This document shows positions 43,027 through 60,396 of a stretch of DNA of 64,000 nt, one piece after another. A program made the position numbers and the translations under genes. Each line of letters begins with the position of its first letter. Position 1 is the stretch's first letter. The stretch is from a virus. The DNA is taken from positions 4,968 through 68,967 of IMG/VR virus record IMGVR_UViG_3300021963_000106. One strand, 5' to 3'. Below the pieces are notes generated by a model. The model saw only the letters and a list, made by a program, of their open reading frames with translations, ran no database searches and was not told the DNA's origin.

Positions 43027-43212
43027 CTAACGGACGATTGCTGCTTGAGGAGTAGACTGTCCTTGACGGTTAGTGTTAGTCCTCACGCCTTTCGTACTAG
43101 TCAACCACAGATCAGACTTACGTGGTTTCACTGATGGTAACCGTGTGACTGTTACCTTACCTTGTGCTTCAGCGATTGCAAGGTCCAGGTTACTCATCTT
43201 GGTAATGTTCAT
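43027..43212 (-). CDS. Hypothetical protein
   Basis: 61-aa ORF. Confidence 0.55.
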   Translation of the reverse strand: MNITKMSNLDLAIAEAQGKVTVTRLPSVKPRKSDLWLTSTKGVRTNTNRQGQSTPQAAIVR

Positions 43213-43254
43213 AACAGAGTGTTGGTAACTGTGTGAGACTAAGTGATAACGAAC

Positions 43255-43503
43255 TCAGAGATCTTCAATCAGTTCGTTGAGTTCATTCCAGTTCAACTTG
43301 TCACTGGTAAATGATACTCCATCACGGGTCTTGGTGATAAAGTTCTCGGTGGAATCTACGAAGTCCTGATAATCATCACAAAGACGGGCGATGTCATAAA
43401 GACCCTCATTATTACCGATCCACAGAGCAACATTCCAGGTCTCATAATTCGTCCAACCGTTATAGGTCTCGTCTTGAATGTTGGTCTGATAAGTGGTGCT
43501 CAT
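43255..43503 (-). CDS. Phage hypothetical protein (YNGWTNYETWNVALW motif)
   Basis: Recognisable phage motif; follows repeat copy 1. Confidence 0.8.
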   Translation of the reverse strand: MSTTYQTNIQDETYNGWTNYETWNVALWIGNNEGLYDIARLCDDYQDFVDSTENFITKTRDGVSFTSDKLNWNELNELIEDL

Positions 43504-43574
43504 TGAATCGTGGTTGTCCTTACACTATAGGGACACTCTCAGGGGCCCAGATAGTCTTACTCAGTCTGTATGAG

Positions 43575-43748
43575 TTACCACTTATCAGGACGACTGAGAT
43601 CTTCCACATAAGCCGAAACCTTCTCAGCTGGTTCCAATTTGAATACCTTCTCCCAGTCAAGTTGATGTGGGTCGAAGTCCTCAAAAACCTCAAACTCTAG
43701 AGTGACCCTATAACGTTGCTTCTGAGCTTGACGATACGCAACTGACAT
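43575..43748 (-). CDS. Hypothetical protein (MSVAYRQAQKQRYRVTLEFEV)
   Basis: GGAGA RBS before ATG 43748; promoter just upstream. Confidence 0.7.
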   Translation of the reverse strand: MSVAYRQAQKQRYRVTLEFEVFEDFDPHQLDWEKVFKLEPAEKVSAYVEDLSRPDKW

Positions 43749-43776
43749 GAGCTTTCTCCGTTGGTGTTCTTGTGTA

Positions 43777-43805
43777 AGTCTAAGATACCTGGGAATTATT
43801 GTCAA
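43777..43805 (-). promoter_or_regulatory. Sigma70-type promoter
   Basis: TTGACA-17-TAGACT. Confidence 0.7.
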
Positions 43806-43876
43806 CGTCCTGGGGAGTATTTATCAGGGGTCGGTGGATTTTTATGCGGGGATTGTGGGGATTTTATGACGGGGGG

Positions 43877-43905
43877 TTGCCATATTCTGAGTGTTCGTGT
43901 AAGCT
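43877..43905 (+). promoter_or_regulatory. Plus-strand sigma70-like promoter facing a non-coding AT-rich tract
   Basis: TTGCCA-17-TAAGCT. Confidence 0.5.
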
Positions 43906-44098
43906 CATGCACGGTAAGATCACAAGACTCTGAGCACATTAAAAGGGTATAATAAGGTCTTTAATTGATACGAATTCATATCATTATCACCTTTTGATAA
44001 CAATACTGATCACACAAATAAATCTCCCAGCTATAATTAAAAAAGGCTTTTTTAATCGTTTTAATACATTTTTGACTATAAATTGGTAAAAAAGACAT

Positions 44099-44124
44099 AA
44101 AAAAAGACCCTGGAAGTAGGGTCT
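44099..44124 (-). terminator. Intrinsic terminator
   Basis: AGACCCT/AGGGTCT stem followed by T run on minus strand, just after 44135 stop. Confidence 0.7.
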
Positions 44125-44134
44125 CTATGTTATA

Positions 44135-44371
44135 TCAATCAATCGCTAATCTGTACCTTGCATAATCTTCTGCATCAGATCTTTTCTTGAATCTTGCTTC
44201 TTCACCTTCAAACCTGAGTGGCAAGTATCGGTATTTCTTTCCTTCCTTAGTCATAACGATTCGGGAGAATAGATGAAGAGAGTAACAACCTTCTTCTGTA
44301 TATTCACTCTCTTTCTTTACTATGAATGGCAGAACTTGTTGATCGTTGAATGACTGTTTAGAGAGTAACAT
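44135..44371 (-). CDS. Hypothetical protein
   Basis: 78-aa ORF. Confidence 0.65.
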   Translation of the reverse strand: MLLSKQSFNDQQVLPFIVKKESEYTEEGCYSLHLFSRIVMTKEGKKYRYLPLRFEGEEARFKKRSDAEDYARYRLAID

Positions 44372-44381
44372 TGTGAAAGAC

Positions 44382-44840
44382 TCAGTTAGGAACTTCTTGA
44401 ATTGTTTCGGTGATAGTGATAACTTCTTGTGTATCAGTTAGATAGTCTGTCTTGATAACATTCGGACCAATGATAACTTGACCAACGATGATTGATGCTA
44501 GGAGAGTTTCAATCATTTTGATTTCAGTTGTTAATCAGTTCGGCAGGACTTCCACAAGAGAGATAGAATTGCACCATCCTTTGTGCTTCATCTAATGTAG
44601 AGAATGATTGCGTTCTCCATTGTTGTCGATAAGGCGTAAAGTAACGGATGGTGAACATCATTTTGTAGGATAAAGACAGGAACTAACTTTACCAGGAGTT
44701 GCTATAACTTGTCCTCCTTTCTCTATACATTGTGCCTCTACTTGTGTGTTTCTAACGTTAATAATACCAAGAAGAAGTACAGCAAAAATAATACCTCCAA
44801 GAATGATAATTACGTTCATTTGGAGTTGCTCTCTGTTCAT
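44382..44840 (-). CDS. Three tandem tiny ORFs (44382-44516, 44524-44658, 44658-44840), two with hydrophobic N-termini
   Basis: Manual translation; tightly packed. Confidence 0.55.
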
Positions 44841-44844
44841 AAGA

Positions 44845-45162
44845 TCAGTTCAGACGCATACCAGAGAAGAAAGGAATTGTAGTTCCATCAGACATACGGA
44901 ACTGCCAAACATAGTTCTTTTGAAATACACTTTCATTGCCAATTCCATGTGCTTGGAGAAGTGCATTAAGACGTGACTTTGTGGTGTTAGATTGCCAACC
45001 ACCATCAAACAGTTGCATCCAAGTGTCGCCAATCTTAGCAATCAGATTGTTGTGCAGATACACTTCGGAAACATCATCAACAGTGATAACTTCAGTGTTA
45101 GCAAGTTTCCAGTCTTTCGATGCAGTGATAGCATCATTCATCAGTTTTTCGATCTTACGCAT
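44845..45162 (-). CDS. Phage hypothetical protein (MRKIE...TTKSRLNA)
   Basis: 105-aa ORF following repeat copy 2. Confidence 0.8.
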   Translation of the reverse strand: MRKIEKLMNDAITASKDWKLANTEVITVDDVSEVYLHNNLIAKIGDTWMQLFDGGWQSNTTKSRLNALLQAHGIGNESVFQKNYVWQFRMSDGTTIPFFSGMRLN

Positions 45163-45364
45163 GGTTGGAAGTGTTGTGGTTATACTACAGGGACAATGTG
45201 ACGGGCCCAGTTTCAGTTACTGACTGGAGAGATAATATCAGCAACTGTGTGTAATGTGTTTGCAGTGATGTTACGAACTCCAGGTGAGAGTATCATCGCA
45301 ACAATAAAGATCAGTAGGATTGTTTTCATCTTACTGGGTGACTTGAATGTAAGACTTTTTGACA

Positions 45365-45595
45365 TCAATCGAAACGGGAAGATACATCAGGACCAGGATT
45401 CTCAAGATGTGCTACACTATCTGCAATGCGATCTTGTGACAATGCAAACTGTACTTTCTGACCTTCATAATAAATGTCAAAGACAGATTGCACATAAGGT
45501 GTTAGATTACCTTGTGCATCCCATGCGTTTCGTGTGTGTGAAGTCTCAACGATTTGATAGACTTTAGAAGTCAGAGGAGAGGTGTAAGTGATCAT
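45365..45595 (-). CDS. Hypothetical protein; ATG lies inside repeat copy 3
   Basis: 76-aa ORF. Confidence 0.7.
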   Translation of the reverse strand: MITYTSPLTSKVYQIVETSHTRNAWDAQGNLTPYVQSVFDIYYEGQKVQFALSQDRIADSVAHLENPGPDVSSRFD

Positions 45596-45786
45596 ACTAT
45601 AGAGACAATCTCAGGGGCCCAGTTAATCTCACCAGTTGATGAGTGTAGCAATGTTGCCAAGCTTGTTTTGTTCGTCTACAATCTCCATGGCATGATTGTA
45701 TGTTTTGACGGAAATGTAACGTGATTTTCCTCTAGTCTCAGGAAACAATCCTAGTTTGTCAATGATGCGAACTGTGTTGGAATGTT

Positions 45787-45987
45787 TCATTTCAGAAAGT
45801 GACGATAATCAATGGATTTGATGCACCAACCAGTTGCAGCTGTGATTTCTTCGATTAGATCTTCTTCATCATCAGCTTCCCAAATCATACCGATAGTTTC
45901 ATCGGTAATGTTACTAAACTCATGTTCAGGAAAGTCATCATCTTCATCAAAATCAAACTCGATTGCAGTAACTTGGAATTGCATCAA
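45787..45987 (-). CDS. Acidic hypothetical protein
   Basis: 66-aa ORF, WEADDEEDLIEEIT..TGWCI. Confidence 0.75.
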   Translation of the reverse strand: MMQFQVTAIEFDFDEDDDFPEHEFSNITDETIGMIWEADDEEDLIEEITAATGWCIKSIDYRHFLK

Positions 45988-46247
45988 ACTGCACCTGCCA
46001 TAAAGTTGTAATCTTGCACCAGGTTAATGTTATCGCCAGTGATCACATAATCCATTGCAAGACGCTCATTGATCTCACGTTGTGCATCTTTTTTGGTCAG
46101 ACACTTTTGAGAGATGGTATCAATACCCTTCCAAGAAAGAACCTTGAGAGTATAGTTGGAACAATCCTCAATGGGATAGAAACCAACAATCATTGTGCCA
46201 TCTTTAGACTGGAGAGTAGGAAACTCGATCATGGTAGTGTTGCTCAT
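45984..46247 (-). CDS. Hypothetical protein (start at 46247 or 46232, not 46421)
   Basis: Track ORF reads through repeat copy 4; true start lies in or after the repeat. Confidence 0.7.
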   Translation of the reverse strand: MSNTTMIEFPTLQSKDGTMIVGFYPIEDCSNYTLKVLSWKGIDTISQKCLTKKDAQREINERLAMDYVITGDNINLVQDYNFMAGAV

Positions 46248-46284
46248 ACTATAGGGACAATCCCAGGGGCCCAGTTTCAGTAAC

Positions 46285-46467
46285 TCAAAGACCGTTGATG
46301 TAATCAGCGACTGCATCTTTGTATTCTTTTTCAGTCTCAAAGATGCGACCGTGAATGTTACGCGGATAAGTTGGATTCGATTCACCAACTGCAGCAACCA
46401 TGTAACAATCTTGGGCATCATAGCCCATCTCGATGAGGTTTTGAACGTAAGGGTTGTAATGTGTCAT
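46285..46467 (-). CDS. Hypothetical protein; ATG lies inside repeat copy 5
   Basis: 60-aa ORF flanked by copies 4 and 5 (single-gene cassette). Confidence 0.7.
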   Translation of the reverse strand: MTHYNPYVQNLIEMGYDAQDCYMVAAVGESNPTYPRNIHGRIFETEKEYKDAVADYINGL

Positions 46468-46497
46468 ACTATAGGGACAATCTCAAGGGCCCAGTTA

Positions 46498-47239
46498 TTA
46501 TCGGAAACTGACATTGACACCAACAACTTTTGCTTTAGGATTGCGAGCGAGAGCTGTTTCCCGCGCATCTTTTGGGTTGGTTGCTTGTACTTCTTCTTTG
46601 AAGACTTTACCACCAACGTATAGATCAACAATGTACTTCATAGTGTTTGGAAAGGTTGGGCTTCTTTGATGTTAGAATTGAAAAACTTTTGAAAGATAGA
46701 ATCAATCACAGGATACCATTCTTCGTTTGCACTTGGGAATCCACATTCTCGTGCTTGATTGAGAAACTTCAGGATGCAAGTTTCCTCATTAGCAGTGAAA
46801 TCAACGCGATTGAAAGTGTAACCGTCAGTCATAATCAAACAGGGGTAACTTCAACGGAACGGATAAGATTTGTGCGATCTTGTGCTAGGTAATCATCAGC
46901 GATTTTACCACAAGATGAACGAGACTGAATGAACTTTTCTTCATAACAAATCCCTGCACTGTTGGGGGCTTTGTACTCAATCAACAGGCGATAGTTCTTC
47001 ATAATCAATCAGGCAGGAAGAATACAGAAAGTGCCACACCAGTTGCGAACCCATTGTAGAGTTTCGTAGTAAGATGTGCGGGGGTTGCTCATCTCCATTG
47101 TGGAACCATTGTGAGGATTGTGTGCAACAGCGACATAAAGATTGTCACACTCTTTATCAGTAATCTGTTCAATCCACATTTGATTGACTTTGCCTTCCTT
47201 CCAATTTGTGTGGTAGGAGTAGACTTCGGAGACGATCAT
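46498..47239 (-). CDS. Cassette of four small ORFs (including 46638-46838 and 47009-47239) between copies 5 and 6
   Basis: Track ORFs plus manual MKYIVDLYVGGKVF... and MKNYRLLIEYK... Confidence 0.6.
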
Positions 47240-47293
47240 GGTAGGAGTGTTGTGCTTATACTATAGGGACAATCCCAGGGGCCCAGTTACTAT

Positions 47294-48123
47294 TCACCAC
47301 TTCCCTTGTTGTATGAGAATCTTTTTGATCTCTTGATAAATGAACTGGCGAAGTTTAGGGTCGGTAGTGTTATCAAAAGCATAATAAAGACGATTCAAAT
47401 ACTCATTCTGTGTCGCACCTATGTTACCATCGCCACCAATGTCATTGAGTGAAGAACCAGCTTGCACACGATTCTTTCCAAAGTTACCAGACACACGCCC
47501 AGTTGTACGAAGTTTGGGGCGAATCTTTGAGAGGTTAGAGTAAGTCATCGTGCTACAATGTCAAGAGTTTCCAACAGCATCATCGAAAGTTCCATCTGGT
47601 TCTCATCATCAACCACGGGAATGTTTGTCTCTACAAACTCACTAATCAGTTGAGCAAAGAGTTCAGTTGTGCGCTCATCTGCGAATAGAGCAGTGGCAAG
47701 TTCATTCTTGAATCCATCACGCAGAAGTTTGAGAGACTTTGTAACAGTCGTTTCTTTAATTTGTTCTTCATAAGTCATTTCGGTGTCATAGGTCATTTGT
47801 TTTCCACCCAGATTTCAAGGATTTAATCATTTTAGACAAAGTTTGTTCGTTACCCTTTAGTCTGGGATTGCAACGACGTTTCTCAACTAGAGGTGGATTG
47901 TAGAGTTTGATTGTTGATGCTAAACGCAAATCATTCATTCCTCATCCTCTTCATAAGGGAACATTTCATCATACTCTTCATCAGTCAGAGTAAGATATTG
48001 AACATTGGCATTTTTATGCTCTTCAGCATACATCAACTGATAATGTGCGAAAGAAGATGGGTCGCTGCTAGCATACTCTAACAGGCCATCAACAAAACAA
48101 AGGTAGTTCATTGGAGTGCTCAT
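47294..48123 (-). CDS. Cassette of small ORFs (47294-47548, 47545-47796, ~47786-47938, 47935-48123) between copies 6 and 7
   Basis: Overlapping start/stop junctions. Confidence 0.65.
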
Positions 48124-48156
48124 ACTACTAGGACACTTTGAAGGGCCCAGTTACAA

Positions 48157-48825
48157 TCATTCAATTCTTACTCTTTGTGATGTATCAATTCCTCTTTTTC
48201 TTTGATACTTTGTAAGATTGCCAGCATTTGTTATAAATCCCGTCTCCAAACATTTCCATTTCTGATAACCAGATTTTTCTCTTATTTTTTGCCTAATTTC
48301 TTCACTATGTTTTCTATTTTTTCCTGCTTCACTTAATTTTTTCCTTTGCTCTTCACTTACAATTTTTCCCCTATTTCCATCTCCTATTTTTCTCCGTGTT
48401 TCCTCACTTGGAGATTGACCTTTATTCCAAGGTGTTTTACCTTTTGCTGCTTCACTTAATTTTTTTCTATGTTCTTCACTAAATCCTTTGCCTTTTTGAG
48501 AATTGCTAATTTTTCTTCTCCACTCTTCACTACACTTTCCACCTTTATTCCAAGCAATAGCACCAGAAGTTCCATCACCACCATTAGTTAAGTTCCTCAA
48601 GATGCCAGTCCCTAAATCTTTTCTACCAAACACAGCAATCATATACTTTTCGTGCTTAAATGCTTCTTCCTCTGTTAGATTTTGTTTAAGAAAGATTATT
48701 CTATCTTTTGGCGGAACATTCAGTTTTCTATTAACTTTAGAATATGCTCTCCTATCTTTACCCTTCCCAATGTAGTAGGGAGTTTTATCCTCACGCAAAT
48801 AAGCGTAGGTATAGTAATTATTCAT
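48157..48825 (-). CDS. Free-standing GIY-YIG-type homing endonuclease with NUMOD3 repeats (A)
   Basis: YYTYAY...YYIGKG, R, E (AFKHE), N (LRNLTNGGDG); repeated S-EE-x-RxK-I/L-S motifs. Confidence 0.85.
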   Translation of the reverse strand: MNNYYTYAYLREDKTPYYIGKGKDRRAYSKVNRKLNVPPKDRIIFLKQNLTEEEAFKHEKYMIAVFGRKDLGTGILRNLTNGGDGTSGAIAWNKGGKCSEEWRRKISNSQKGKGFSEEHRKKLSEAAKGKTPWNKGQSPSEETRRKIGDGNRGKIVSEEQRKKLSEAGKNRKHSEEIRQKIREKSGYQKWKCLETGFITNAGNLTKYQRKRGIDTSQRVRIE

Positions 48826-48924
48826 ACTGCTTTGTTTGTGGTTATACTTATTTATACAAGAAAAGAGGCATTTCTGCCTCTAATCTCTTCGCTTGAATAA
48901 CCACAAACAAGCAACTTTATTTAT
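48826..48924 (-). ncRNA. Structured leader/candidate antisense sRNA unit of endonuclease A
   Basis: 14-nt perfect inverted repeat 48832-48845/48897-48910, two hairpins, two late-promoter motifs. Confidence 0.6.
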
Positions 48925-49352
48925 CGTCGGTAGAGCCAACCGCCGCTCCAATCCGCATTTTCCAGAGCCCACTCCCTCTCTTTAATGATTAGGAGATTGC
49001 ACCTTTCGCCCTTTGCAGGACTACGCCACGATGCTGACTTGAAAACGCCTCCGTTTTGCTTATCTACAAAGAAAGCAACACTACGCGATCCACCACCATT
49101 CACCATAATAACTTTGTGATACTTTTTACCAGTTTCTACAGTATAATCAATGTCGCACTTACCAGACTTGAGTTCATCAATCTTCCGCTGATGATACTCC
49201 TGAGTGTCAGCATCATTCACGAACTTTTGATGACCGCGAATAGAATACTGCACATAATTCTGCTTGAGTGCTTCAATCAGCAGAAGAGTGTTCTTATACA
49301 CATTCTCTGCAATAATTTGTTTTGCTTGTGCTTGCATGGTAGTGTTGCTCAT
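48921..49352 (-). CDS. Phage hypothetical protein (FKSASW..PAKG motif)
   Basis: 143-aa ORF starting in repeat copy 8. Confidence 0.8.
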   Translation of the reverse strand: MSNTTMQAQAKQIIAENVYKNTLLLIEALKQNYVQYSIRGHQKFVNDADTQEYHQRKIDELKSGKCDIDYTVETGKKYHKVIMVNGGGSRSVAFFVDKQNGGVFKSASWRSPAKGERCNLLIIKEREWALENADWSGGWLYRR

Positions 49353-49385
49353 ACTATTGGGACAATCTCAGGGGCCCAGTTACAT

Positions 49386-50288
49386 TCACCAGTTTTTTGC
49401 AAGAGTGAAGTTTAGACGGCTGAATTGCATACGATCAACAATCTTGTATGATCCAAACTTGTTGTGCATTACGAATCCTTCATGATCAGACTCGTTACCA
49501 TCAATCTCACACAGAATGTCATCGTCAGTATCAATGAAGAAGAACAAATCCATCTTGATTGATGCAACAAGTTTCCAAAGTCGCATCAGGTTGATGTCAA
49601 CATCATAATTTTCTGCAATTTCATGTTCATCCACCATCTTACCCTCACGGATGTAAGAATTGATGATTTTTTTGAGTTCTGCAGATTGTTTTACATTCAC
49701 GAACTCACAAAGAGTGCTCATTTGCTTAGCAAACTTACACACGTCTTCAATGTCCTCACGATAAGGACAAATAGACACCTTAGGTTGCACAAATAGACAG
49801 TCTTTTGTACTTGCAAACTTACTGGTAATAGGATGAGCTACCATCTCAGGCAGACGATCACCAGTGTAATATGTGTGAGGAGCAATGATAATCTCCTGAC
49901 GTACAATCTCAGAGAAACGATAGGTAATCGTGTTGGGTTTGAATGTATCAAGACCCTTACCGAAACCAATCCAATCTCCCTGATACACGTTGTTAGTGCG
50001 AGGCAGGAAATCCAGACAATAAATGAGAATCTGTGCTACGCGAGGTTTACCACCAAAGTGATCAAACACATCATCTTCATTGTAGCAAAGACGAATCTTT
50101 TGTTTATTGAACGCTGCCTTTGTGCAGACAAAAAACTTACCATTCTCAGGATTTGTACCCCACACAATAGCAGGAGCTCCATCCATCTTGACACTAATCT
50201 TACTGTTGGATTCATACATCCAATCCAGTACAGATAGATCACCTGTAAGGATGAGATCTTCGGGATGTTCTAGATGTTTGTTTTGCAT
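49386..50288 (-). CDS. Ligase/nucleotidyltransferase-fold protein (DUF6267-like)
   Basis: KHLEHPED start; KMDG (motif I KxDG), QGD, HEGFV, YKIV motifs. Confidence 0.65.
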   Translation of the reverse strand: MQNKHLEHPEDLILTGDLSVLDWMYESNSKISVKMDGAPAIVWGTNPENGKFFVCTKAAFNKQKIRLCYNEDDVFDHFGGKPRVAQILIYCLDFLPRTNNVYQGDWIGFGKGLDTFKPNTITYRFSEIVRQEIIIAPHTYYTGDRLPEMVAHPITSKFASTKDCLFVQPKVSICPYREDIEDVCKFAKQMSTLCEFVNVKQSAELKKIINSYIREGKMVDEHEIAENYDVDINLMRLWKLVASIKMDLFFFIDTDDDILCEIDGNESDHEGFVMHNKFGSYKIVDRMQFSRLNFTLAKNW

Positions 50289-50294
50289 GGCTCT

Positions 50295-50329
50295 ACAATG
50301 ACATAAAAAAGGGGACAATGCAAGTCCCC
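50295..50329 (-). promoter_or_regulatory. Overlapping terminator and promoter
   Basis: GGGGAC/GTCCCC stem + T6; TTGCAT-17-CATTGT. Confidence 0.6.
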
Positions 50330-50342
50330 TTGTGACACTTAA

Positions 50343-50630
50343 TCAAGCGGCCTTGCGCTTGCTGGTTTTGGTAACTTTTACCTCTTGAATTGGTAGAGCA
50401 TTTGCATTGACCAATTCATACATGGTAGCAGTAGAACGATTCACCAAGAAAAGAGTTTGATTAATAAACTTGCGAACTTTATTCACACCATCGTTCTCAT
50501 TAAATGCACGAATCAGAAACTGACTGACTCCAACAAAAATTGCAGCGATGGTAGCAATGTTCTTCACAAGAGTATCAACGAACTTCCAGTAGAATGTCAT
50601 AGTTTGTGTTAGAAACTTCTGTGAGAACAC
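50343..50630 (-). CDS. Hypothetical membrane-associated protein
   Basis: Hydrophobic segment IATIAAIFVGVSQFLI; follows copy 9. Confidence 0.65.
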   Translation of the reverse strand: MFSQKFLTQTMTFYWKFVDTLVKNIATIAAIFVGVSQFLIRAFNENDGVNKVRKFINQTLFLVNRSTATMYELVNANALPIQEVKVTKTSKRKAA

Positions 50631-50842
50631 GTCCTCACACTAGAGAGACAATCTCAGGGGCCCAGTTCAATCAACTGGGAGTTTTGCTACACTCTTACCT
50701 TTCTTATGATCTGTGATATACTTTCGTGCAGATGATTCAGTCCTGCAAAGTTTATCTAACTGTTGACCATTATGAATGATAAGATACTGGTTCCCGTAAG
50801 GAATTGCAGCATAGGTATCCTTAAACATTGTAAATCCTTCTT

Positions 50843-51388
50843 TCATACTAGAAACCTCTTCTCATAATCTAACAGTTCTTCGGGAACATCCAATACATTG
50901 TTGTTGATTGGACGTGCATATTTCCACTCTTTCTTACCACTTTCTCTCTCATACAGTTTGATGCCCAAGTGGTTATACTTCATGTTGGTTGCTACAAGAA
51001 CCTTGTAACCATCGTCTTTGTTTTGTGTCAAGAATGAGAGTGATTCGTTCTCCTTCGATGTAACAATGATCGTCCTACATGAGTACCAGAAAACTGACTT
51101 GAACTTCTCATAATCGTTCAGGTAAGTATCCTGATTATCCAGAATCATTCGACCAACAAATTGTGGCGAAAGACAGTGATCTTGAGTTGTCTTACCTCTG
51201 TTCATCTTGTTGACATAGGCATTCTCACTGATCAGACCAGTTGGGTTAGGATTGCCAGAGTCAAATACACCAAGATAGAAGTCACGGGCAAGAGCAATGT
51301 TCCACTCTGGAGATTCATTCCATTTGTGAGCATTAGCCCTCATGTTGTTGAATGTTTTCTCGCAGAAGATTTGCCAGTTGCGTTTCAT
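50843..51388 (-). CDS. Hypothetical protein, possible His-Me/HNH-like nuclease
   Basis: DHCLSP...IVTSKEN spacing reminiscent of beta-beta-alpha-Me nucleases. Confidence 0.55.
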   Translation of the reverse strand: MKRNWQIFCEKTFNNMRANAHKWNESPEWNIALARDFYLGVFDSGNPNPTGLISENAYVNKMNRGKTTQDHCLSPQFVGRMILDNQDTYLNDYEKFKSVFWYSCRTIIVTSKENESLSFLTQNKDDGYKVLVATNMKYNHLGIKLYERESGKKEWKYARPINNNVLDVPEELLDYEKRFLV

Positions 51389-51509
51389 TTTAAGAAAAAT
51401 CGGTGATTTTGTTGCGGTGGATGGGTTCTAGGTCGGTTGCAGTGAAATTGCAGAAAAATCAGGGTTTGACCCCTGATGGCCACTTGAGTCTTGGGTGAGA
51501 CTCACCGCC

Positions 51510-52010
51510 TCACATATAAGGTTGACCCTTCTCTGCCCGTTTCCTTCTCCATTCTCTCATATAAAGAGCGTGAGATGATACACTCTCTTCTGGTTCATAT
51601 TTTCCCTTGTTTGGAGGTATCCTACCTTTGAGACTTTCCTTCATTTTTACTATACTTTCTTGAGTGTGTTTTCTTCCGTAGAAATGATTTTTACTTCCCA
51701 TTCTACTTTGAGACATTCTACTCCTTGTTGTTTCTGTGAGAGTTGCTCCAGAAGTTCCATCGCCACCATTAGTTCTATTCCAAAGAATACCAGTTCCCAA
51801 ATCTTTTCTACCTAATACACTGATTAGATAGATTTCATGATTAAATGCGTCCTCTTCATTATCGAAATGTTTAAGAATTAAAACTCTATCTACTGGAGGA
51901 ACAAAAACATATCCTCTGTGGTCTCTATATGCTCTGTTACCTTTCCCCTTACCAATGTAGTAAGGTGTTCCATCTTCACGCAGATATGCGTAAGTATAGT
52001 ATTCTTTCAT
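51510..52010 (-). CDS. Free-standing GIY-YIG-type homing endonuclease with NUMOD3 (B), paralog of A
   Basis: YYTYAYLREDGTPYYIGKGK, GRKDLGTGIL.N.TNGGDGTSGA shared with A; HFYGRKHTQE. Confidence 0.85.
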   Translation of the reverse strand: MKEYYTYAYLREDGTPYYIGKGKGNRAYRDHRGYVFVPPVDRVLILKHFDNEEDAFNHEIYLISVLGRKDLGTGILWNRTNGGDGTSGATLTETTRSRMSQSRMGSKNHFYGRKHTQESIVKMKESLKGRIPPNKGKYEPEESVSSHALYMREWRRKRAEKGQPYM

Positions 52011-52113
52011 TGTAAGTCTGGGGATGACTGTATCTATTTATTCTATCATAAAAGTGGGACTTACGCAACCTTTGTCTCCCCAGACTTACAGATTGCTGCC
52101 CACATTCTATTTA
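52011..52113 (-). ncRNA. Structured leader/candidate antisense sRNA unit of endonuclease B
   Basis: 14-nt perfect inverted repeat 52011-52024/52077-52090; upstream arm sits in loop of a larger stem; two TAAATA motifs. Confidence 0.6.
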
Positions 52114-53295
52114 CCGACGTACTACACTATCAACCATCTCACCTTTCTCAAAGACAGCATCAACAACTCGTTGAAGTGCTCGTTCTGTAGATACTCCAAC
52201 TTTAGAATATACAGGCACCACACACAACCCCCAGACTTTCTCTTTGCCACCAAGGCGAAGAACACGACCGATAGTTTGAGTCATTTCGATCACATCCATG
52301 TTGCGAAGAAAGACTACTGCCTCTAGTTCGCTGACGTTGATTCCCTCACTCAAGATAGAACGATGGAGACAAACAAACTTCTTATTAGGGTCACGACCCC
52401 AAGAATTGAGAGTGTCGAAAAACACTTCACGATTTACCTTCTTGCCATCAATAATAGCCCCAGTCTTGGAGGTAATGTAGAGGTAGGAATAACCATATTG
52501 ATGTAGTTTTTCAGCACAGTCAGTGTGAGACATCAGGTTGATAAGTTGTTTCGCAGACTTAACACAAACCAGGATTTTCTTACAATCAATATCCCCCAGA
52601 GTTTCCATCAGATTGCTACTGTCACACTCAGCAGTTACCTGCTTTGGTGCAAGCACATCGAACTTCTTTGCTACAATCTTAGGAGCGATAATGTATCCAC
52701 CATCAACAAGTTCGGGAGCAGAAACGCGGCAGATGATGTCACCATAGACATCACGATCGTTCATTCCAGGTTTAGAAGGAGTGAGAGAAGTCTTCCTGGT
52801 TGCAGTGAAGAAGTAACAACGACGTGCGTTAGCAGCAAAGTGTTCAGTTGCAGGGAAAAAGTGACGTTGAACAGAATTATGTGCCTCATCAAAGTAGATC
52901 GTATCCACATCAATTCCTGCAACTTGCAGACGCGACAGAGAGTTGTAGGTAGTGAAGATCAGTTGGTGACGATTAGAAGCGGCACACATACCAGCGTGAA
53001 CAAGAATGTCACGAGGTTTGGTAGTGCTAACGTGATGAGTTTCTCCACTGTGAACGTGCAGAACTTCAGCGTTAGTGATAAACTCCAGAAACTCAGCAGA
53101 GAGTTGTTCCGCAAGAAGAATACGCGGTGCAACAACAACAATCGTCTGGGGAGTTTCAGACTGCAACTCGCGCAGACAATCATAGATCATCTTCAGAGTC
53201 TTGCCACCACCAGTAGGAACAATGATCTGACCTTTATCATGTTGTTGCATAGCAGCAACACCACGTTCTTGATGCGGACGGAGTTGGATTTGCAT
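52111..53295 (-). CDS. SF2 DExH helicase
   Basis: LRPHQ, PTGGGKT, DEAH, TAT, LSEGIN, QTIGRVLR motifs. Confidence 0.92.
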   Translation of the reverse strand: MQIQLRPHQERGVAAMQQHDKGQIIVPTGGGKTLKMIYDCLRELQSETPQTIVVVAPRILLAEQLSAEFLEFITNAEVLHVHSGETHHVSTTKPRDILVHAGMCAASNRHQLIFTTYNSLSRLQVAGIDVDTIYFDEAHNSVQRHFFPATEHFAANARRCYFFTATRKTSLTPSKPGMNDRDVYGDIICRVSAPELVDGGYIIAPKIVAKKFDVLAPKQVTAECDSSNLMETLGDIDCKKILVCVKSAKQLINLMSHTDCAEKLHQYGYSYLYITSKTGAIIDGKKVNREVFFDTLNSWGRDPNKKFVCLHRSILSEGINVSELEAVVFLRNMDVIEMTQTIGRVLRLGGKEKVWGLCVVPVYSKVGVSTERALQRVVDAVFEKGEMVDSVVRR

Positions 53296-53359
53296 TGGAA
53301 TCGGTATCTATTACAAGGACATTCTAAAGGGCCCAGTTTCATCAACTGGACCCCAACAA

Positions 53360-54460
53360 TCAAACTAGAGAGAGTTCGATTTCAGATTCGGGATGGAAGT
53401 CTAGGAGAACTTGATCCACTGGGTTTCCATCAATCAGACAAGAATGAATGAAGTGAAGTGTTTCATCGTTCATAGTTTCAATGAAGGGACCAAACATATC
53501 AAATGTTACCACATTTTCATTGAACCTTGCCCGAGACCATTCGTTGAAGCATAGTGCGAGTCGGATAGTTGCAGTTTCCATACCTGCACCATGTTGACAC
53601 TTTGCAGTCCACCAATCCTTATGTCGTTTCAGATACTGTTCACTCTTCAGATACTTCTTAAAGTTGACAGATTCATCACCCAACATGTCACAGACATTTG
53701 CAATCGCACCATCAAGTTGAGTTCGACCAGTGTTAAGTTGTTTCAGGAGAGGAATGTATTTGATGAACTTATCCACACCAAGATATACAGAACTCTTCAT
53801 ATTAGTGAGGAGATTAGTCATGTTTCCGTGACCGTCTTTGTAGACAAGTTCTGCAGAATCTACACTCACACCATAATCATTTACATGGATTCCTGCTTCA
53901 GCACAAGCGTTATCAAGTTCCTGTTGTTCTTTGGTCATACTTCCTGAGAGTTTTGCTACTCGCATCTTGGAAGTTGTTTTGACTTTTGCATTGAGTTCAT
54001 TCTTTGCATAGAAGAAGTCACGTTCTGCAGCAATCATCTCATCTTCAGTACAATTCATATCATGTTTTCCTTGACGTTGAATAGCAATCTCTTCAACACC
54101 ACAGATATAAGCCATGATTGCACGGTGCATACCATCGGGACTTGAATCTCCATACAATTCAGATACAAATGTATCAATAGTTCCTGCAGTTTTGTGAGAG
54201 AAACCACCAAACCTCTTCAGGTTATCTTGAATGTTTCCATGTTCAATCGCATCAACACGTTGAGTCAAAGTATTGATGAAGAGATCCTTAACGTTGATCG
54301 TTCGTTTTTCATCACGCAGAGGAATCTCATCCATTGCACCATCACTTTTCACACCTTTAGTTTTTTGTGCCCATGCAACAAGTTGCGGACAATACTTGTC
54401 AACAATTTGGGGAATGGTGAGAAGATACTGAGGAACTTGAGTGGTCATAATGTAGTTCAA
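53360..54460 (-). CDS. ParB-N/DGQHR-like domain protein
   Basis: N-terminal TQR...PDGMHR motif. Confidence 0.55.
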   Translation of the reverse strand: MNYIMTTQVPQYLLTIPQIVDKYCPQLVAWAQKTKGVKSDGAMDEIPLRDEKRTINVKDLFINTLTQRVDAIEHGNIQDNLKRFGGFSHKTAGTIDTFVSELYGDSSPDGMHRAIMAYICGVEEIAIQRQGKHDMNCTEDEMIAAERDFFYAKNELNAKVKTTSKMRVAKLSGSMTKEQQELDNACAEAGIHVNDYGVSVDSAELVYKDGHGNMTNLLTNMKSSVYLGVDKFIKYIPLLKQLNTGRTQLDGAIANVCDMLGDESVNFKKYLKSEQYLKRHKDWWTAKCQHGAGMETATIRLALCFNEWSRARFNENVVTFDMFGPFIETMNDETLHFIHSCLIDGNPVDQVLLDFHPESEIELSLV

Positions 54461-54502
54461 TTAAGAATTAAAGTGTTTCGGGTGGTTTCATATCTAAAAG
54501 AC

Positions 54503-54548
54503 ATTATACCACCCTTCCTGACGTTTGTGGAGGGGTCTTGTGACAGTT
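54503..54548 (-). promoter_or_regulatory. Promoter (TCCACA-17-TATAAT) preceded by AACTGTCACA box
   Basis: Perfect -10 with extended TG. Confidence 0.6.
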
Positions 54549-54550
54549 AA

Positions 54551-54706
54551 TCAACCACCGAACATTTCATCAAAAAGCCAATCACCAGAACGCTCTTTTT
54601 CTTCCCAGACTTTGTTAGCGTTCTCAATGATCATTGCCTGTTCGATCTTCACATCAATGGCAGATTTGGTCATGAACCAGTTGCCGTTGCGATCTTGCCA
54701 GAGCAT
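54551..54706 (-). CDS. Hypothetical protein (MLWQDRNGNW...DWLFDEMFGG)
   Basis: Start after repeat copy 11. Confidence 0.65.
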   Translation of the reverse strand: MLWQDRNGNWFMTKSAIDVKIEQAMIIENANKVWEEKERSGDWLFDEMFGG

Positions 54707-54760
54707 TGTGTTGAGTGTCGTTGTTATACTACTGGGACAATCCCAGGGGCCCAATAACTA

Positions 54761-55360
54761 TCAGGGTTGATAGTGTGATGCTGGTTTATCAACTCCCTTC
54801 TGAATGTCACGATGCAGTCTCTTACCAGCTCTCACAAGTTTCTTCTTCTCATCTTTAGTATATTTACCCTTGATCATATGATCTTCAGGTTTTCTTGAAC
54901 TAGAGAATCTTGAATCTTTTGCTTGTGATGTTGGTTTAGGTGTTGCCTTCTTTCTTAGAAGTTCAGTTGCTTTTGATGCTAACTCCTTACCCTTTGGTTT
55001 TTCTGTTGTTGCAGCAGCACCTTTCTTTTTAGCAGCAATTCTTGCCTGTGCAGCCTTTCTTCTTTCTTCTTTTGCTGCAGCTAATTGTGCCTCTCTAGCC
55101 GATCCACGTTCTTGTTTTGGTGCTTCAATCGTTGATTCACGTTTCTTACCAATGTCTTTGCGGGGTTTCTGAACTACAGGCGCAGTCTTTCCACCACCAA
55201 CTCTCTTTGTTCTGCGAATCTCGGGAGTTGTCTTTCTGCGAAGCCTTCCAGTTCTTCCACCCTCTCCAGTCTTAATGACTTGAGCACCAGAGCGAAACTC
55301 TGCATCATAGGTATCACCAGTTGCTTCGCAAAGAGACATAAACTCCGTGAATGTACGCAT
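54761..55360 (-). CDS. Highly basic protein, candidate internal head protein (MRTFTEF)
   Basis: Lys/Arg-rich; TAAATA upstream. Confidence 0.7.
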   Translation of the reverse strand: MRTFTEFMSLCEATGDTYDAEFRSGAQVIKTGEGGRTGRLRRKTTPEIRRTKRVGGGKTAPVVQKPRKDIGKKRESTIEAPKQERGSAREAQLAAAKEERRKAAQARIAAKKKGAAATTEKPKGKELASKATELLRKKATPKPTSQAKDSRFSSSRKPEDHMIKGKYTKDEKKKLVRAGKRLHRDIQKGVDKPASHYQP

Positions 55361-55389
55361 TTGACTATCTAAAATACTCTTTTTAGTAT

Positions 55390-55593
55390 TTAGATGTCTT
55401 CATCCTTAGGTCGCAGTCCACCTTTACTCACAAGGCCGTTATCATAGAAATACTTTACACGTTCACGACGAGCAACCATCAAGAGATCATATTCTTCTTG
55501 TTGTTGTTTAGTGAACTTGAAATCTTGACGACGCCAAGCATCTTTCAGTTCTTTGATGTGAGGCAGAACGTTCACAGTGTCAGTCATAATCAA
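55390..55593 (-). CDS. Hypothetical protein
   Basis: 67-aa ORF. Confidence 0.7.
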   Translation of the reverse strand: MIMTDTVNVLPHIKELKDAWRRQDFKFTKQQQEEYDLLMVARRERVKYFYDNGLVSKGGLRPKDEDI

Positions 55594-55775
55594 TAATCGT
55601 AGTTGGAGTTGAGATATTCGTTAATGTTGAAACTGTTAGATTCTTCAATCAGTTCCGTTAGATCTTTTTCAATGAAATCAAATCCTGGAGTTTCTTCAAT
55701 TTGAATGTCATCAAAGCAGTCCATAGTTTGTTTCGTGCTTACATTATAGGGACAATCTCAAGGGCCCAGTTTGGA

Positions 55776-55967
55776 TCAACGACTCAAGATTGCTTTCATT
55801 CTTCTTTCTTTTGCTACTTGTTGTGATCTTGCTTCTGCACCAATCTCTTGATGAACGTGTTTTCTATGTGCAACTCCACCTCTTGCCTGAGCTTGCGCTT
55901 TCATTACATTAAATGGTGTAGGATTCATGTGTGGAGTTTGTTCCATGAATTGTTTGAACGTTTTCAT
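55776..55967 (-). CDS. Candidate internal head protein (MKTFKQFMEQ)
   Basis: Capsid-targeting-like N-terminus; TAAATA upstream. Confidence 0.65.
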   Translation of the reverse strand: MKTFKQFMEQTPHMNPTPFNVMKAQAQARGGVAHRKHVHQEIGAEARSQQVAKERRMKAILSR

Positions 55968-55995
55968 CTAACCAACACTTTTTGAGTATTTAGTT

Positions 55996-57165
55996 TTATT
56001 CAAACTCGAAAGACTTGTTTGATGTTTTCATTAGTGGAGTTCGATATTCTTCATCTGTAGAAGTTTGCACAAAAACTTCTATTTTAGTCTCATCATTCCA
56101 GTGACGAATCACACCAGCAACAATAAAGGCATTAGTAATCAAATAAGTCGCAAAAATAAAAGTTCGGATAAGTGCTACCTTATCCGATTCACGATCACAT
56201 TTACTTGCTTTTTCTCCCAATGCTTTAGCCCACCATCGCCAAGCAGTCTTGTTCTTCTTCATACTTTGATTGTCTTGACTTAACATACTTCAATTCTTTC
56301 CAATCTTCTTTGTAACAAACCACTAGCAATCTTTCATTTGCATGAATGGGACAAGCGTTATAGTTTTCTGTATCTTTGGGACGAACAACATATTCAATCG
56401 TTATGTATTCGTCATCCCTAAAATAAACCCAACCTTCAACATCTTTTGTCCATTCAACATAATCATTGACTTGTGGTTTGTATGTCATACAAAGAACGCA
56501 TCTAATGGGGACTGTTTAATAGGCATCGCGGTGTAATTCCGCGTATCCTTGATATTTACACAAGCACCGATGGTTTTACTATTGATGGGGGCGAAGTATT
56601 CTCTGGTCTTGGATTTATAGAATCCCCAGATTGTCCTTGTGGGAGCACCGTTATTGTAATCAAACTTGCGATTGCAATACAACCATATAGCAACAACTCC
56701 ACGCTTGAATTCTTCAAACTCATAATAATAACCTTTTGGTGCTTTGTGAGGAAACTCAGCAATCATAGAACTTATCACGCGACATATACTCAATTTGCTT
56801 CTGCAGTTGTGAGATTTCGTGTTCTTGTTCTGCAATTTTATTTTGCAGTTGTTCAATACGTTCTTGATACTGTTTCTTCAAATCAGACACCATTTGATTG
56901 GTGTGAGTAACGTGGTTAGTCATCAGGTGGTAAAAGATTCTACAACTTCGGATTCTACATTTTCTGAAAGAGCAAATGTTACAGCATTAAGGATGTTTTC
57001 TCTCAAGTCACTGTAGTGTTTTTCATAGAAATTGCCATTGTCTTCAGCGGAGATAAGATCAAAACACTCATCATCATCCTTTGCGACTACATTCCAAACT
57101 CCACCATACTCAGAAATAGGAAAGGGAACGTAATGTTGAACAATGTAAAGAAACTTTTGTGCCAT
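55996..57165 (-). CDS. Operon of small hypothetical ORFs (55996-~56262, 56225-56488, 56485-~56766, 56923-57165)
   Basis: Overlapping ORFs downstream of the promoter at 57189-57217. Confidence 0.7.
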
Positions 57166-57188
57166 TTGTTTGTGTAGATTACCTCTTA

Positions 57189-57217
57189 ATTTTAATTGTT
57201 ATCGTACTCTTTGTCAA
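57189..57217 (-). promoter_or_regulatory. Sigma70-type promoter
   Basis: TTGACA-17-TAAAAT. Confidence 0.75.
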
Positions 57218-57801
57218 TCAAATCATCCCCATCAGATGCAACTGAAAGAAATGCAAATCCCATCGTTGCAAGAATACCCAATGCAAATCCAGCAATAAAC
57301 TCCATTAGTAAAAATTCGATCTAGACAAGTATTTTTTATAAAGATAAAGGTTAAATGCAGTTCCTCCAAAGAGGACTGCAAATGCAGTTCCAATGATAGC
57401 AATCATCAATAAAACTCCGCAAGATAATAGTCAACAGGTACTTCAAGTTTTGCTGCCTCGCGTTCAACTTCTTTCCAGAACTCTTCTGCTACTTTATTCA
57501 TTTCTGCTTGTTTAATAAGATCACGGAGTCGTTTTGAAATCATTTAGAGTTCTCCTTAAGTTGATATTCTTCGCGTGGATACATTACCTTGAGGTAATAT
57601 ACCATAATGGATGATACAAATGCAACCAGAGTAGTATAGATTGTTATAGCAAATCCAATACTCATTTCATTTGTTGAATTGCTTGATGACGATAGTATGC
57701 TTTATACATTGCATCATCACGCTGAATTAGAAAGACATTCCAACCAAGAATGACTGCAAAACCAATCAATCCAGAGAAAACATACTTGCGGTTTGTGTTA
57801 T

Positions 57802-58218
57802 TCATACGGCAAGAGCAGCAGAGGGGATTTCAACAACTTCAGGAAGTTTTTGTTCATAACAGTTCATATCATAACATATCCATTCACCATTGCGGAACAC
57901 ATAAGCATACTCTTCATCTGAGTTGTTCTTTTTCAGATACTCACAGAGGTCAGAATCAAGACGAGGAGGGCAATCTTCACCACGTTGGGAATAGTATTCG
58001 GGTCCATAAACACCCTTCACACCACTATCATCCCAACGAGAATCAGTCCAACAGGAACTCATATCACCACCATCAATTAGTTCTTCAACAAGAGAACGTG
58101 AATTGTAGTGAGTCTTCAGGATGCGACCCAACCATTCGGGATAACCATCCCAGTGGTGATACACAGAGAGAATGGAACCATCCTTAAGTTCAAGACCAAT
58201 GCGAGAGCGGGTTGACAT
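57802..58218 (-). CDS. Phage hypothetical protein (MSTRSRIG...YHHWDGYP)
   Basis: 138-aa ORF following repeat copy 13. Confidence 0.8.
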   Translation of the reverse strand: MSTRSRIGLELKDGSILSVYHHWDGYPEWLGRILKTHYNSRSLVEELIDGGDMSSCWTDSRWDDSGVKGVYGPEYYSQRGEDCPPRLDSDLCEYLKKNNSDEEYAYVFRNGEWICYDMNCYEQKLPEVVEIPSAALAV

Positions 58219-58522
58219 TTGAAAATTGTCCTTACACTATAGGGACAATCTCAGGGGCCCAATAACTATCAACCTCCCTTTTCCCTCAAACTCCTTACAA
58301 GATATTCAGTAAACTCTTCCATTTTTTCAGGCACAACTGCTTGAGGACGTTGGTTAATTGCATTTTTAAGTGCCGTCATTTCTTTCCATTCATCATCGGT
58401 CAGTTTTTCTTGTTTTCCAGATGAAAGGGTCATAATTTTTCTCCCGAATACTCTCTTATGTTATCATATCCTAATAAATTATCTAGACATTTAACAATCT
58501 CTTCGGGATTGATTAACACTTC

Positions 58523-59709: not shown

Positions 59710-60291
59710 TTATTTCCTCCTATTATATGGTTTTAATTCCAATCTTCCAGGTTTCCATTCATCACCAGGACATTTTACACTTCTTTTACTTGTTTGTCCA
59801 TTATTCCACCACTTTGTATTTTTATGTGATGGTGGTAGGTGTCCAATTTCTTTTAATGCTTTACTTATGTTTTTCTTATTTTCTTCACTCAGTGGTTTAT
59901 TTTTATGTGTATCACTTAATAATTTTCTTTGTTCAAGAGAGCGTTTTTTACCTAAATTAGATTTTCTAATTTTTTCTTTAGTCTCTTCACTATGAGTCCA
60001 TCCCAATTTACCATCTCCACCTAATGTACTATTATATCCATACTCAAAAGTGTTGAACTCTTTTATGTAAGAAATTTCTTTTTGAGATAGAGATTCAATC
60101 TCACATTCTTCAATTATACCATAAATGAAATTTTCCCATCCATACTTTCTTACTGCATTGTAAAATTTTCTCTTACAACCCTTGTTGGACATATAGCGAT
60201 GATATTCTTTTCTTCTTCTTTCGTATTTTGTTTGCCCAATGTACTTCTTACCTGTAGGAATACAATGGTAGCAATAAATTACTCCTTTCAT
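59710..60291 (-). CDS. Free-standing GIY-YIG (Seg-like) homing endonuclease with NUMOD3 repeats (C)
   Basis: GVIYCY...KKYIGQT, GYNSTLGGDG, HSEETKEKIR repeats. Confidence 0.88.
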   Translation of the reverse strand: MKGVIYCYHCIPTGKKYIGQTKYERRRKEYHRYMSNKGCKRKFYNAVRKYGWENFIYGIIEECEIESLSQKEISYIKEFNTFEYGYNSTLGGDGKLGWTHSEETKEKIRKSNLGKKRSLEQRKLLSDTHKNKPLSEENKKNISKALKEIGHLPPSHKNTKWWNNGQTSKRSVKCPGDEWKPGRLELKPYNRRK

Positions 60292-60396
60292 TTCTGCTCT
60301 TAAGTTGGTGGTTAAGACTATTTATACAGGAAAAGCACCCAAAGGTGCTTTATCCTAACCTGAAAAGAACCACCAACTCAGGCACTTATTATTTAT
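60292..60396 (-). ncRNA. Structured leader/candidate antisense sRNA unit of endonuclease C
   Basis: 11-nt perfect inverted repeat 60303-60313/60368-60378, two hairpins, two late-promoter motifs. Confidence 0.6.

Follow-up and report, generated by a model that had tools for sequence, protein, structure and literature searches.

What reads a short DNA element that recurs thirteen times, always in one orientation, among the small genes of a T4-like cyanomyovirus? The window analysed here (64,000 nucleotides; positions 4,968 to 68,967 of IMG/VR virus record IMGVR_UViG_3300021963_000106) belongs to a contig fragment assigned to this virus group and about 32% complete. An earlier note on the window had described the pattern TGGGCCC-N7-TGTCY-N3-TART at the heads of gene cassettes, and had proposed a distinct, non-sigma70 promoter class making leaderless or short-leader mRNAs, with a site-specific recombination site as the alternative. 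The element is real, strongly non-random and widespread. Strand bias, intergenic position, start-codon register, a genome-specific box and the absence of RNA structure make it very probable that the thirteen copies are promoters, of one geometry or another, serving the small-gene region. The narrower proposal, a phage-specific promoter at which RNA would be initiated at the purine directly after TAGT, is evenly poised on the same sequence evidence.

Anatomy of the element and the start codons within it

Within the window the pattern has 13 exact matches (Table 1), which span 43524 to 58261 and lie without exception on the minus strand; none turned up in 100 dinucleotide shuffles. Allowing three mismatches yielded no further copy, and the whole 68,967-bp contig holds the identical set. 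The number, fixed spacing and single orientation described earlier are thereby borne out, as is the variation of the TATA-like hexamer, which is seen as TGTAGT, AGTAGT, AATAGT, TCTAGT and TGTAAT; copy 4 is the most divergent, with a position weight matrix (PWM) score of 26.9 against 44.8-58.2 in the other copies. The claim that each copy heads one to five small genes holds roughly, failing for the first cassette (58235 to 55769), which carries nine open reading frames (ORFs) of at least 40 aa, and for the large genes that elements also head, namely the 394-aa helicase and ORFs of 362 and 300 aa.

Conservation was counted by an exact-pattern scan of IMG/VR, which returned at least 228 stretches and, among the matches listed, 194 unique instances, to which all counts out of 194 refer. 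With the T of TGGGCCC numbered 0, position 26, right after TART, is a purine in 189/194 instances, position 27 is T in 183 and position 29 is A in 172, followed by mostly GCAC at positions 30-33 (A32 in 157); on the 5' side, A stands at -2 in 155 and C at -1 in 119. The stop codon of the upstream gene lies most often at -10 (66 instances) or -6 (35), and the upstream flank is coding until 6-10 nt before the box. Because of this conservation of flanking positions and placement of stops, the element is best described as a unit of about 36 bp, squeezed in between one gene's stop codon and the gene that follows, and reaching from 3 nt 5' of TGGGCCC to 8 nt 3' of TART; the originally described pattern stands within it, and its extent is enlarged.

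Two further observations concern the letters of the element. GGGCCC occurs 16 times in the window, against about 1.8 expected from base composition; 13 of these sites belong to the elements and the remaining three, at 7303, 11348 and 12561, lie inside structural genes. By eye, positions 9-12 and 16-19 can pair (GAGA/TCTC or GGGA/TCCC) in the copies at 45596, 46248, 47260, 50639 and 54728: T18 occurs only with A10 (2/2) and G10 only with C18 (3/3), five other copies have an A.C mismatch, and the potential 4-bp pairing is missing in relatives with the AAAGT-type core.

Five copies (6, 7, 9, 10 and 11) are followed directly by an in-frame ATG that opens the downstream ORF, and ORF 45365-45595 has no other in-frame ATG, both as the earlier note had it. 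A rescan of IMG/VR with 450-bp flanks, together with the window, supplied 203 unique instances among the matches listed, which are the base of all start-codon and leader counts that follow. ATG occupies positions 26-28 in 106 of the 203, and the frame that it sets stays open for at least 40 codons in 101/106, whereas the two remaining frames do so in 2 and 4; where the same positions read GTA (47) or ATA (31), open frames number 18/1/16 and 10/1/10. The 101 ORFs with an embedded start span 28 protein families, so that the preference for this frame does not stem from a single event multiplied by copying. The next in-frame ATG of these ORFs comes no more than six codons on in 55 (as a rule at codon 5), after 7-15 codons in 11 and after more than 15 codons in 16, and is missing from the stretch read in 19; 35/101 have no in-frame ATG within 15 codons. 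Twelve of the 28 families have at least one such member and six have both kinds, and one family displays the whole series (MSTKPMQNKHLEHPED, MKNLHLEHPED and MQNKHIEHPED), its own methionine lying either 15 nt past the element or at position 26 itself. Orthologues elsewhere of the DUF7249 gene behind copy 13 also have their ATG at the abutting position. Judged by reading frame, the ATG that directly follows TART is a genuine start codon.

Where position 26 carries no ATG (97 instances), the distance to the first long ORF is 2-6 nt in 3, 14-28 nt in 66 and larger in 26; in 2, no such ORF was found. Leaders are either absent (0 nt) or 14 nt and longer, and lengths between these occur in 3/203. 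The leaders peak at 17-18 nt and are A/C-rich (13.5% G), and no Shine-Dalgarno sequence is apparent in them; the distance from a purine-rich stretch to the ATG is 13-19 nt where the ATG is embedded and about 30 nt where it comes later.

A shared core joined to a genome-specific box

The element is made of two parts with different distributions. The 3' core, AAAG-YGTCC-N3-TAGT-RTRAGCAC (written also as AAAG/GAGAT-TGTCC-N3-TAGT-RTRAGCAC), is common to the cultured phage S-SM2 and hundreds of IMG/VR contigs, and the 5' box, here (AAC)TGGGCCC, is uniform within a genome and different between genomes. S-SM2 has 12 same-strand copies at 42.7-58.5 kb with the core of the window and the box GGGGGGTCG, reading AAGGGGGGTCG-N3-AAAG-YGTCC-N3-TAGTRT-RAGCAC. 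A core-only scan of IMG/VR (GTCC-N3-TAGTRTRAGCAC) returned at least 171 stretches with many different boxes; among the matches listed, every contig with two or more copies (17/17) had a uniform box (within two mismatches), which differed between contigs. On the gene strand of the window, all 12 strict-core matches carry TGGGCCC while the N7 and N3 positions vary, so that the box is held constant within the genome as neighbouring positions drift.

For wider sampling, orthologues of the DUF7717 gene (48921-49352) were used to collect 79 surrounding loci, in which the core lies 344 times on the gene strand against twice on the other. In 37 non-redundant arrays of at least three copies, 230/282 copies carry the modal 8-mer box of their array and 264/282 are within one mismatch of it, and 15 different modal boxes occur. 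The family is not universal, since 31/79 loci have the DUF7717 gene and no core match. Neither the element pattern nor the core was found in Syn9, S-CREM1, S-PM2, S-RIM50 or DSL-LC02; the element PWM had no match in Syn9, and a repeat search in S-CREM1 detected just one pair of sigma70-like intergenic repeats.

The history of the box was followed on a protein tree of the DUF7717 anchor (52 rows), where the box of the element just upstream could be assigned for 28 rows in 13 states. Box type changes 17 times against a minimum of 12, shuffled labels giving 17-23 and 2/300 shuffles reaching 17, and four box types occur together in a well-supported clade of eight rows. On this tree, box type is only loosely tied to the cassette gene, and the changes and the four-box clade suggest that cassettes and boxes have partly separate histories. 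Some arrays are mixed block by block (L676/L678, L687/L689/L690 and L729/L730), one block having one box and the next block, or the last copy, another; such arrays could have arisen naturally, by recombination between lineages, or as chimeras formed at the shared core during metagenome assembly.

Cassette content was compared in nine loci with GGGCCC-type boxes, all on metagenome contigs that may be chimeric. The backbone order F15 / F16-F4-F6-F3 / F10-F0 / F1 / F5-F7-F2 (gene families, with a slash for each element) is kept; cassettes F11, F12 and F13 are permuted among the window, L710, L723 and L674; and an element may be present or missing between the same genes across relatives, as between F1 and F5. 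The F9 endonuclease gene is inserted twice, only in the window and in L666 among the nine. Cassette order and element presence do vary among relatives, a kind of variation whose absence the earlier note would have held against its proposal. Homologous exchange at the repeats, as at the promoter-early stem-loops (PeSLs) of T4-type phages, fits these differences.

What might read the element

In the mechanism favoured here, the shared 3' core would be read by transcription machinery common to related phages and the 5' box by a phage-specified factor co-evolving with it, a trans-acting reader being suggested because the box is constant within a genome and changed between genomes. With initiation at the purine after TAGT, ATG-bearing copies would give leaderless mRNAs and the other copies G-poor leaders of 14-28 nt without a Shine-Dalgarno sequence. 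Since the copies are long and nearly identical, they would also act as seams for homologous cassette exchange between phages. A +1 at position 26 would place TGTCC at -12..-8 and the box at about -29..-17, and would explain at once the embedded starts, the near-absence of 1-13-nt leaders and the 14-28 nt of the rest; a start 6-9 nt further downstream would leave leaders of about 7-10 nt and cut off the ATG of half the cassettes. The start site put forward in the earlier note thus gains support from the purine at position 26, the open embedded frames and the two classes of leader, and its distinct promoter class is upheld in part, by strand bias, placement between genes, the genome-specific box and the lack of an RNA fold or an integrase.

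The same note had contrasted the element with ordinary host-like promoters. Sigma70-like matches number 58, a total not above that of shuffles (50.8 +/- 7.4), and none of the 13 copies is among them; the -35 position holds AACTGG or TGGGCC, whichever candidate hexamer is taken. Six gene-strand matches to TTGACA-N16-18-TAnnnT do stand apart from the elements, as had been claimed (starts at 61979, 61321, 59501, 57217, 43805 and 42760). The stated geometry is correct in so far as no copy is called sigma70, and incomplete in that a shift of 2 nt, which had been overlooked, gives TAGTRT with the box in the -35 region.

A sigma factor, activator or recombinase, for which the note had proposed a scan of the rest of the genome, was sought by domain searches. 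Pfam searches of the 74 ORFs of 40-64 kb gave no sigma, MotA, AsiA or other DNA-binding family above threshold and no integrase or recombinase. In the complete genomes of S-SM2 and Syn9, only a gp55-sized ORF matches sigma region 2. T7-type RNA polymerase (PF00940) and MotA and AsiA (PF09158 and PF09010) each had matches in 0/3 records, namely S-SM2, Syn9 and this contig (about 32% complete), in searches run without a positive control. At the RNA level, the 13 copies share no fold (z-scores against shuffles -1.0 to +2.4), the element region being less structured than shuffles; an Rfam search gave 0 matches; no inverted-repeat architecture or hairpin was found attached to the elements; none of the six terminator-like sites on the gene strand adjoins an element; and the window holds no cluster of motifs complementary to the tails.

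Two other promoter types were considered and rejected. An extracytoplasmic function (ECF)-sigma promoter (AAC-N14-TGTC) would have a spacing 2 nt below the N16 usual for that class, and AAC is missing in other box types. A sigma54 promoter (GG...TGT at about -24/-12) would need a spacing that differs by 1-2 nt, and other box types are without GG; cyanobacteria are not known to have rpoN.

Several points weigh against initiation directly after TAGT. That start site leaves no TAnnnT at -12..-7, where TGTCCC stands instead, so that a sigma70-family holoenzyme alone could not be the reader, and searches of S-SM2, Syn9 and this contig detected neither a second sigma nor a T7-type RNA polymerase, MotA or AsiA, the last three sought without a positive control. 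A perfect TAnnnT (TAGTRT) inside the element offers an ordinary geometry. Genes with an embedded ATG could be expressed from read-through transcripts; among the matches listed, a co-directional ORF precedes 15/17 sole-start instances with long flanks. The instances are not independent (28 families), were collected by exact pattern and come from metagenome assemblies that are possibly chimeric at repeats, and the mixed-box arrays (L676, L689 and L729) are awkward for a strictly private reader.

The main rival builds on that ordinary geometry. TAGTRT (positions 22-27) would be a -10 read by the host primary sigma, with the start 6-8 nt later near CAC (about position 34), the private box at about -37..-26 bound by a phage-specific activator in the manner of T4 middle promoters, and embedded start codons used only on read-through transcripts from upstream copies; we consider such a sigma70-family promoter possible, though rather unlikely. 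The three key positions of TAnnnT are T, A and the last T, and in TAGTRT the first two are fixed by the search pattern and the last is T in 183/194 instances. A conserved CA lies 5-8 nt downstream (A in 157/194), and the repeated elements of Syn9 carry TATTCT, TATACT, CATACT or TATAGT hexamers. The host holoenzyme would be the default polymerase because the sole sigma-like gene in S-SM2 and Syn9 is gp55-sized, and read-through is plausible since the arrays are co-directional, terminators are few and nearly all listed sole-start copies stand behind a co-directional ORF. Nevertheless, transcription would then start inside the first gene in 101/203 instances, leaving 35 of the 101 without a usable ATG and genes with embedded starts dependent on read-through, an odd design, and the remaining leaders would be just 6-20 nt or so, with a peak at 9-10. 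Furthermore, the Syn9 hexamers align with (T/A)(A/G)TAGT, in which the key A is found in 109/194, and not with TAGTRT; MotA and AsiA were not found in the three records searched; and the strongly conserved GTGTCC in the spacer is left unexplained.

Two explanations would dispense with promoter function. The element could be mainly a recombination seam, either homologous as at PeSLs or the site of a dedicated enzyme, and not an expression signal. Same-box relatives do differ in cassette order (F11, F12 and F13) and in element presence (F1-F5), the tree of the DUF7717 cassette gene shows 17 or more changes of box type, some arrays are mixed block by block, and three GIY-YIG/NUMOD3 endonuclease genes occupy the region. 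However, pure homology needs neither a strand bias of 344 to 2 nor a fixed start-codon register nor a position-by-position purifying pattern, any long repeat gives exchange so that exchange need not be the function, and the cassette comparisons rest on possibly chimeric metagenome contigs. The dedicated-enzyme version, which was the alternative offered in the earlier note, finds no recombinase among the 74 ORFs and no fold or inverted repeat, and the seam as a whole is improbable. An RNA-level signal on polycistronic transcripts, at which the RNA would be processed or translation of the following gene initiated, would suit an element that has a stop codon 6-10 nt away on its upstream side and a start codon in constant position, in a region less structured than shuffles as initiation regions are, with a G-poor leader and no apparent Shine-Dalgarno sequence. 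It would leave the genome-specific 8-12-nt box without an evident RNA partner, no cluster of complementary motifs being present in the window; no covarying structure and no Rfam match was found, and the purine-rich stretch, 13-19 nt or about 30 nt before the ATGs, is too far off for a Shine-Dalgarno role. This last explanation seems very improbable.

The favoured promoter can be extended to a broader, more speculative picture, which we think unlikely to hold in all its parts. T4-like cyanophages may possess orthogonal promoter sets, in which every lineage would own a private word of 8-12 bp. The word would be read by a rapidly evolving phage protein, perhaps brought in with the virion, which would steer the host polymerase to the shared core and set the RNA start exactly after TAGT; about half of the accessory genes would be translated from leaderless mRNAs, and incoming cassettes would be expressed only after acquiring the resident word. 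T4-like cyanophages rank with the most abundant viruses of the ocean and are not known to have the MotA/AsiA switch of T4, which raises the question of how their early genes are timed. The element family provides a sharply defined handle on this question, with a shared core, a genome-specific word, hundreds of natural variants and a cultured carrier, S-SM2, and from its embedded in-frame start codons, leaderless translation would be expected in marine cyanobacteria. A co-evolving reader, if true, would explain how accessory cassettes are domesticated after transfer, and would imply an expression barrier between co-infecting phages and a set of natural orthogonal promoters; an ordinary start site, if true, would reduce the finding to a lineage-specific early promoter with an activator box.

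Gene context and relation to known systems

The window has weak DNA matches to Synechococcus phages S-CREM1, S-PM2 and S-RIM50. Its first 40,000 bases encode portal, sheath, tube, terminase and baseplate proteins; from 43.5 kb onward, small minus-strand ORFs of mostly unknown function follow, including a helicase and three GIY-YIG/NUMOD3 endonuclease genes. Syn9 has a syntenic small-gene block at 43-54 kb, where small genes and a helicase likewise precede the baseplate genes.

Table 1. Element copies and other features of the small-gene region (window coordinates; exact-pattern matches in brackets).
Feature	Position	Strand	Details
Copy 1	58228..58264 (58236-58261)	-	tail GTAAGGAC; 17-nt leader to ATG 58218 (138-aa ORF); heads about 9 ORFs
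Copy 2	55735..55771 (55743-55768)	-	TATAAT variant, tail GTAAGCAC; 18-nt leader to ATG 55724
Copy 3	54720..54756 (54728-54753)	-	AGTAGT variant; 21-nt leader to ATG 54706
Copy 4	53302..53338 (53310-53335)	-	TGTAAT, tail AGATAC; 14-nt leader to ATG 53295, 394-aa helicase
Copy 5	50631..50667 (50639-50664)	-	TCTAGT variant; 38 nt to ATG 50600; in-frame GTG 50630
Copy 6	49345..49381 (49353-49378)	-	abutting ATG 49352; second in-frame ATG +15 nt; heads DUF7717 anchor gene
Copy 7	48116..48152 (48124-48149)	-	abutting ATG 48123; second in-frame ATG +12 nt
Copy 8	47252..47288 (47260-47285)	-	tail ATAAGCAC; 20-nt A/C-rich leader to ATG 47239
Copy 9	46460..46496 (46468-46493)	-	abutting ATG 46467; next in-frame ATG 13 codons on; single 60-aa gene
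Copy 10	46240..46276 (46248-46273)	-	abutting ATG 46247; second in-frame ATG +15 nt
Copy 11	45588..45624 (45596-45621)	-	abutting ATG 45595, sole in-frame ATG of 76-aa ORF 45365-45595
Copy 12	45176..45212 (45184-45209)	-	TGTAGT variant, tail ATAACCAC; 21-nt leader to ATG 45162 (Kyano_Gp96 family)
Copy 13	43516..43552 (43524-43549)	-	tail GTAAGGAC; 20-nt leader to ATG 43503 (DUF7249)
Intrinsic-terminator-like hairpin	44103..44126	-	closes cassette 12; AT-rich gap next, then TTGACA-17-TAGACT match 43805-43777
Terminator-like hairpin	50309..50331	-	AAGGGGAC-ttgcatt-GTCCCCTT-TTTT; just 5' of DUF6267 gene (ATG 50288)
GIY-YIG/NUMOD3 homing-endonuclease-like genes	48157-48825, 51510-52010, 59710-60291	-	first two are paralogues, family F9
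71-aa ORF	60392-60604	-	sub-threshold Pfam DUF1492 (E 0.0017, 19 bits against a cut-off of 21.5)

The F9 endonuclease genes are found in the window and its closest relative, L666, and are missing at the same places in L692 and L714. Among the 74 ORFs searched with Pfam, the 71-aa ORF upstream of the array is the sole hint of a possible regulator in the small-gene region, and it is flanked by TTGACA-type promoter matches at 61321 and 59501. The hairpin before DUF6267 (50288-50345) resembles a decayed element (GGG..ATTGTCCC..T-run..ATG), and DUF6267 orthologues in other contigs lie directly behind an intact element, with the ATG embedded in some. Among the structural genes, a single minus-strand ORF of 4164 aa (25165-37659) matches phrog_2885, a PHROG baseplate-wedge/virion structural family, across most of its length, and is followed by ORFs of 1799 aa and then 833 aa, both phrog_358.

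A literature search on the motif and on leaderless mRNAs of cyanophages found nothing relevant; in that search, neither a genome-private box joined to a shared core nor a genuine start codon built into a signal at a fixed position was found described. The promoter searches named in the available text of the study that published S-SM2 are BPROM sigma70, T4-late, Pho and NtcA only (Sullivan 2010; PMC3037559), and the available text of Thompson 2016 (PMC5082946) holds no motif discussion.

The closest analogue suggested earlier is the PeSL cassette of T4-type phages RB49 and phi1, which, in the available text of its description, joins a sigma70-consensus promoter to a terminator stem-loop (Arbiol et al., 2010; PMC2839356). 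So described, PeSLs and the window element are alike as repeated regulatory units of hyperplastic small-gene regions that mark cassette insertion, loss and permutation between relatives. They differ in that the window element has no -35 hexamer (0/13 copies sigma70-called) and no attached hairpin, its 5' part is genome-specific and its upstream flank is coding almost to the box. Membership of the PeSL class was rejected, neither of the defining parts given there, the sigma70-consensus promoter and the adjacent terminator stem-loop, being present in the 13 copies.

Two well-known phage systems resemble parts of the element. If TAGTRT is taken as a -10, it resembles a T4 middle promoter, with a phage-specific box at a fixed distance, centred at about -31, in place of the -35. 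T4 middle promoters are read through sigma appropriation by MotA and AsiA, an activator box near -30 replacing the -35. In contrast to these, the box of the window type differs between close relatives, no MotA or AsiA domain was detected in the records of S-SM2, Syn9 and the contig, and the embedded start codons argue for a start site outside that geometry. Promoters of the T7 group, about 23 bp long, are read by single-subunit RNA polymerases; like them, the element is long and near-invariant within a genome, has a phage-specific upstream part and a shared start part, and ends a TATA-like run directly at a favoured start purine. It differs in length (about 36 bp), and no T7-type polymerase was found in S-SM2 or the contig, in a search without a positive control.

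A comparison closer in lineage is available in Syn9. At 43,100-53,200 (L248 and L745), this phage has a repeat of the form GTGACA-N9-GTGTCCAC, about 26-30 nt, then CGTGTATTCTATAAGAGTCAAAG; two further copies end TATAGTATG.GAGTCCC. Its hexamers are TATTCT or TATAGT, followed by ATRRGAGTC, and host-like TTGACA-N17-TGCTATAAT promoters occur elsewhere in the genome. The Syn9 repeats differ from the window element in their upstream boxes, GTGACA and GTGTCCAC, which lie about 30 nt further from the hexamer, and in having no abutting start codon; they share short stretches with it, namely TATAGT-ATG.GAGTC and GTGTCC. Doron and colleagues reportedly described, in 2016, a novel regulatory element of early genes in the T4-like cyanophages Syn9 and P-TIM40. 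The reported element likewise belongs to T4-like cyanomyoviruses and is a repeated signal, not sigma70-like in appearance, before small genes, and both it and the window element occupy a helicase-holding block that precedes the baseplate genes. Seen beside these systems, the element of the window is kin to the early-type promoter cassettes of phages.

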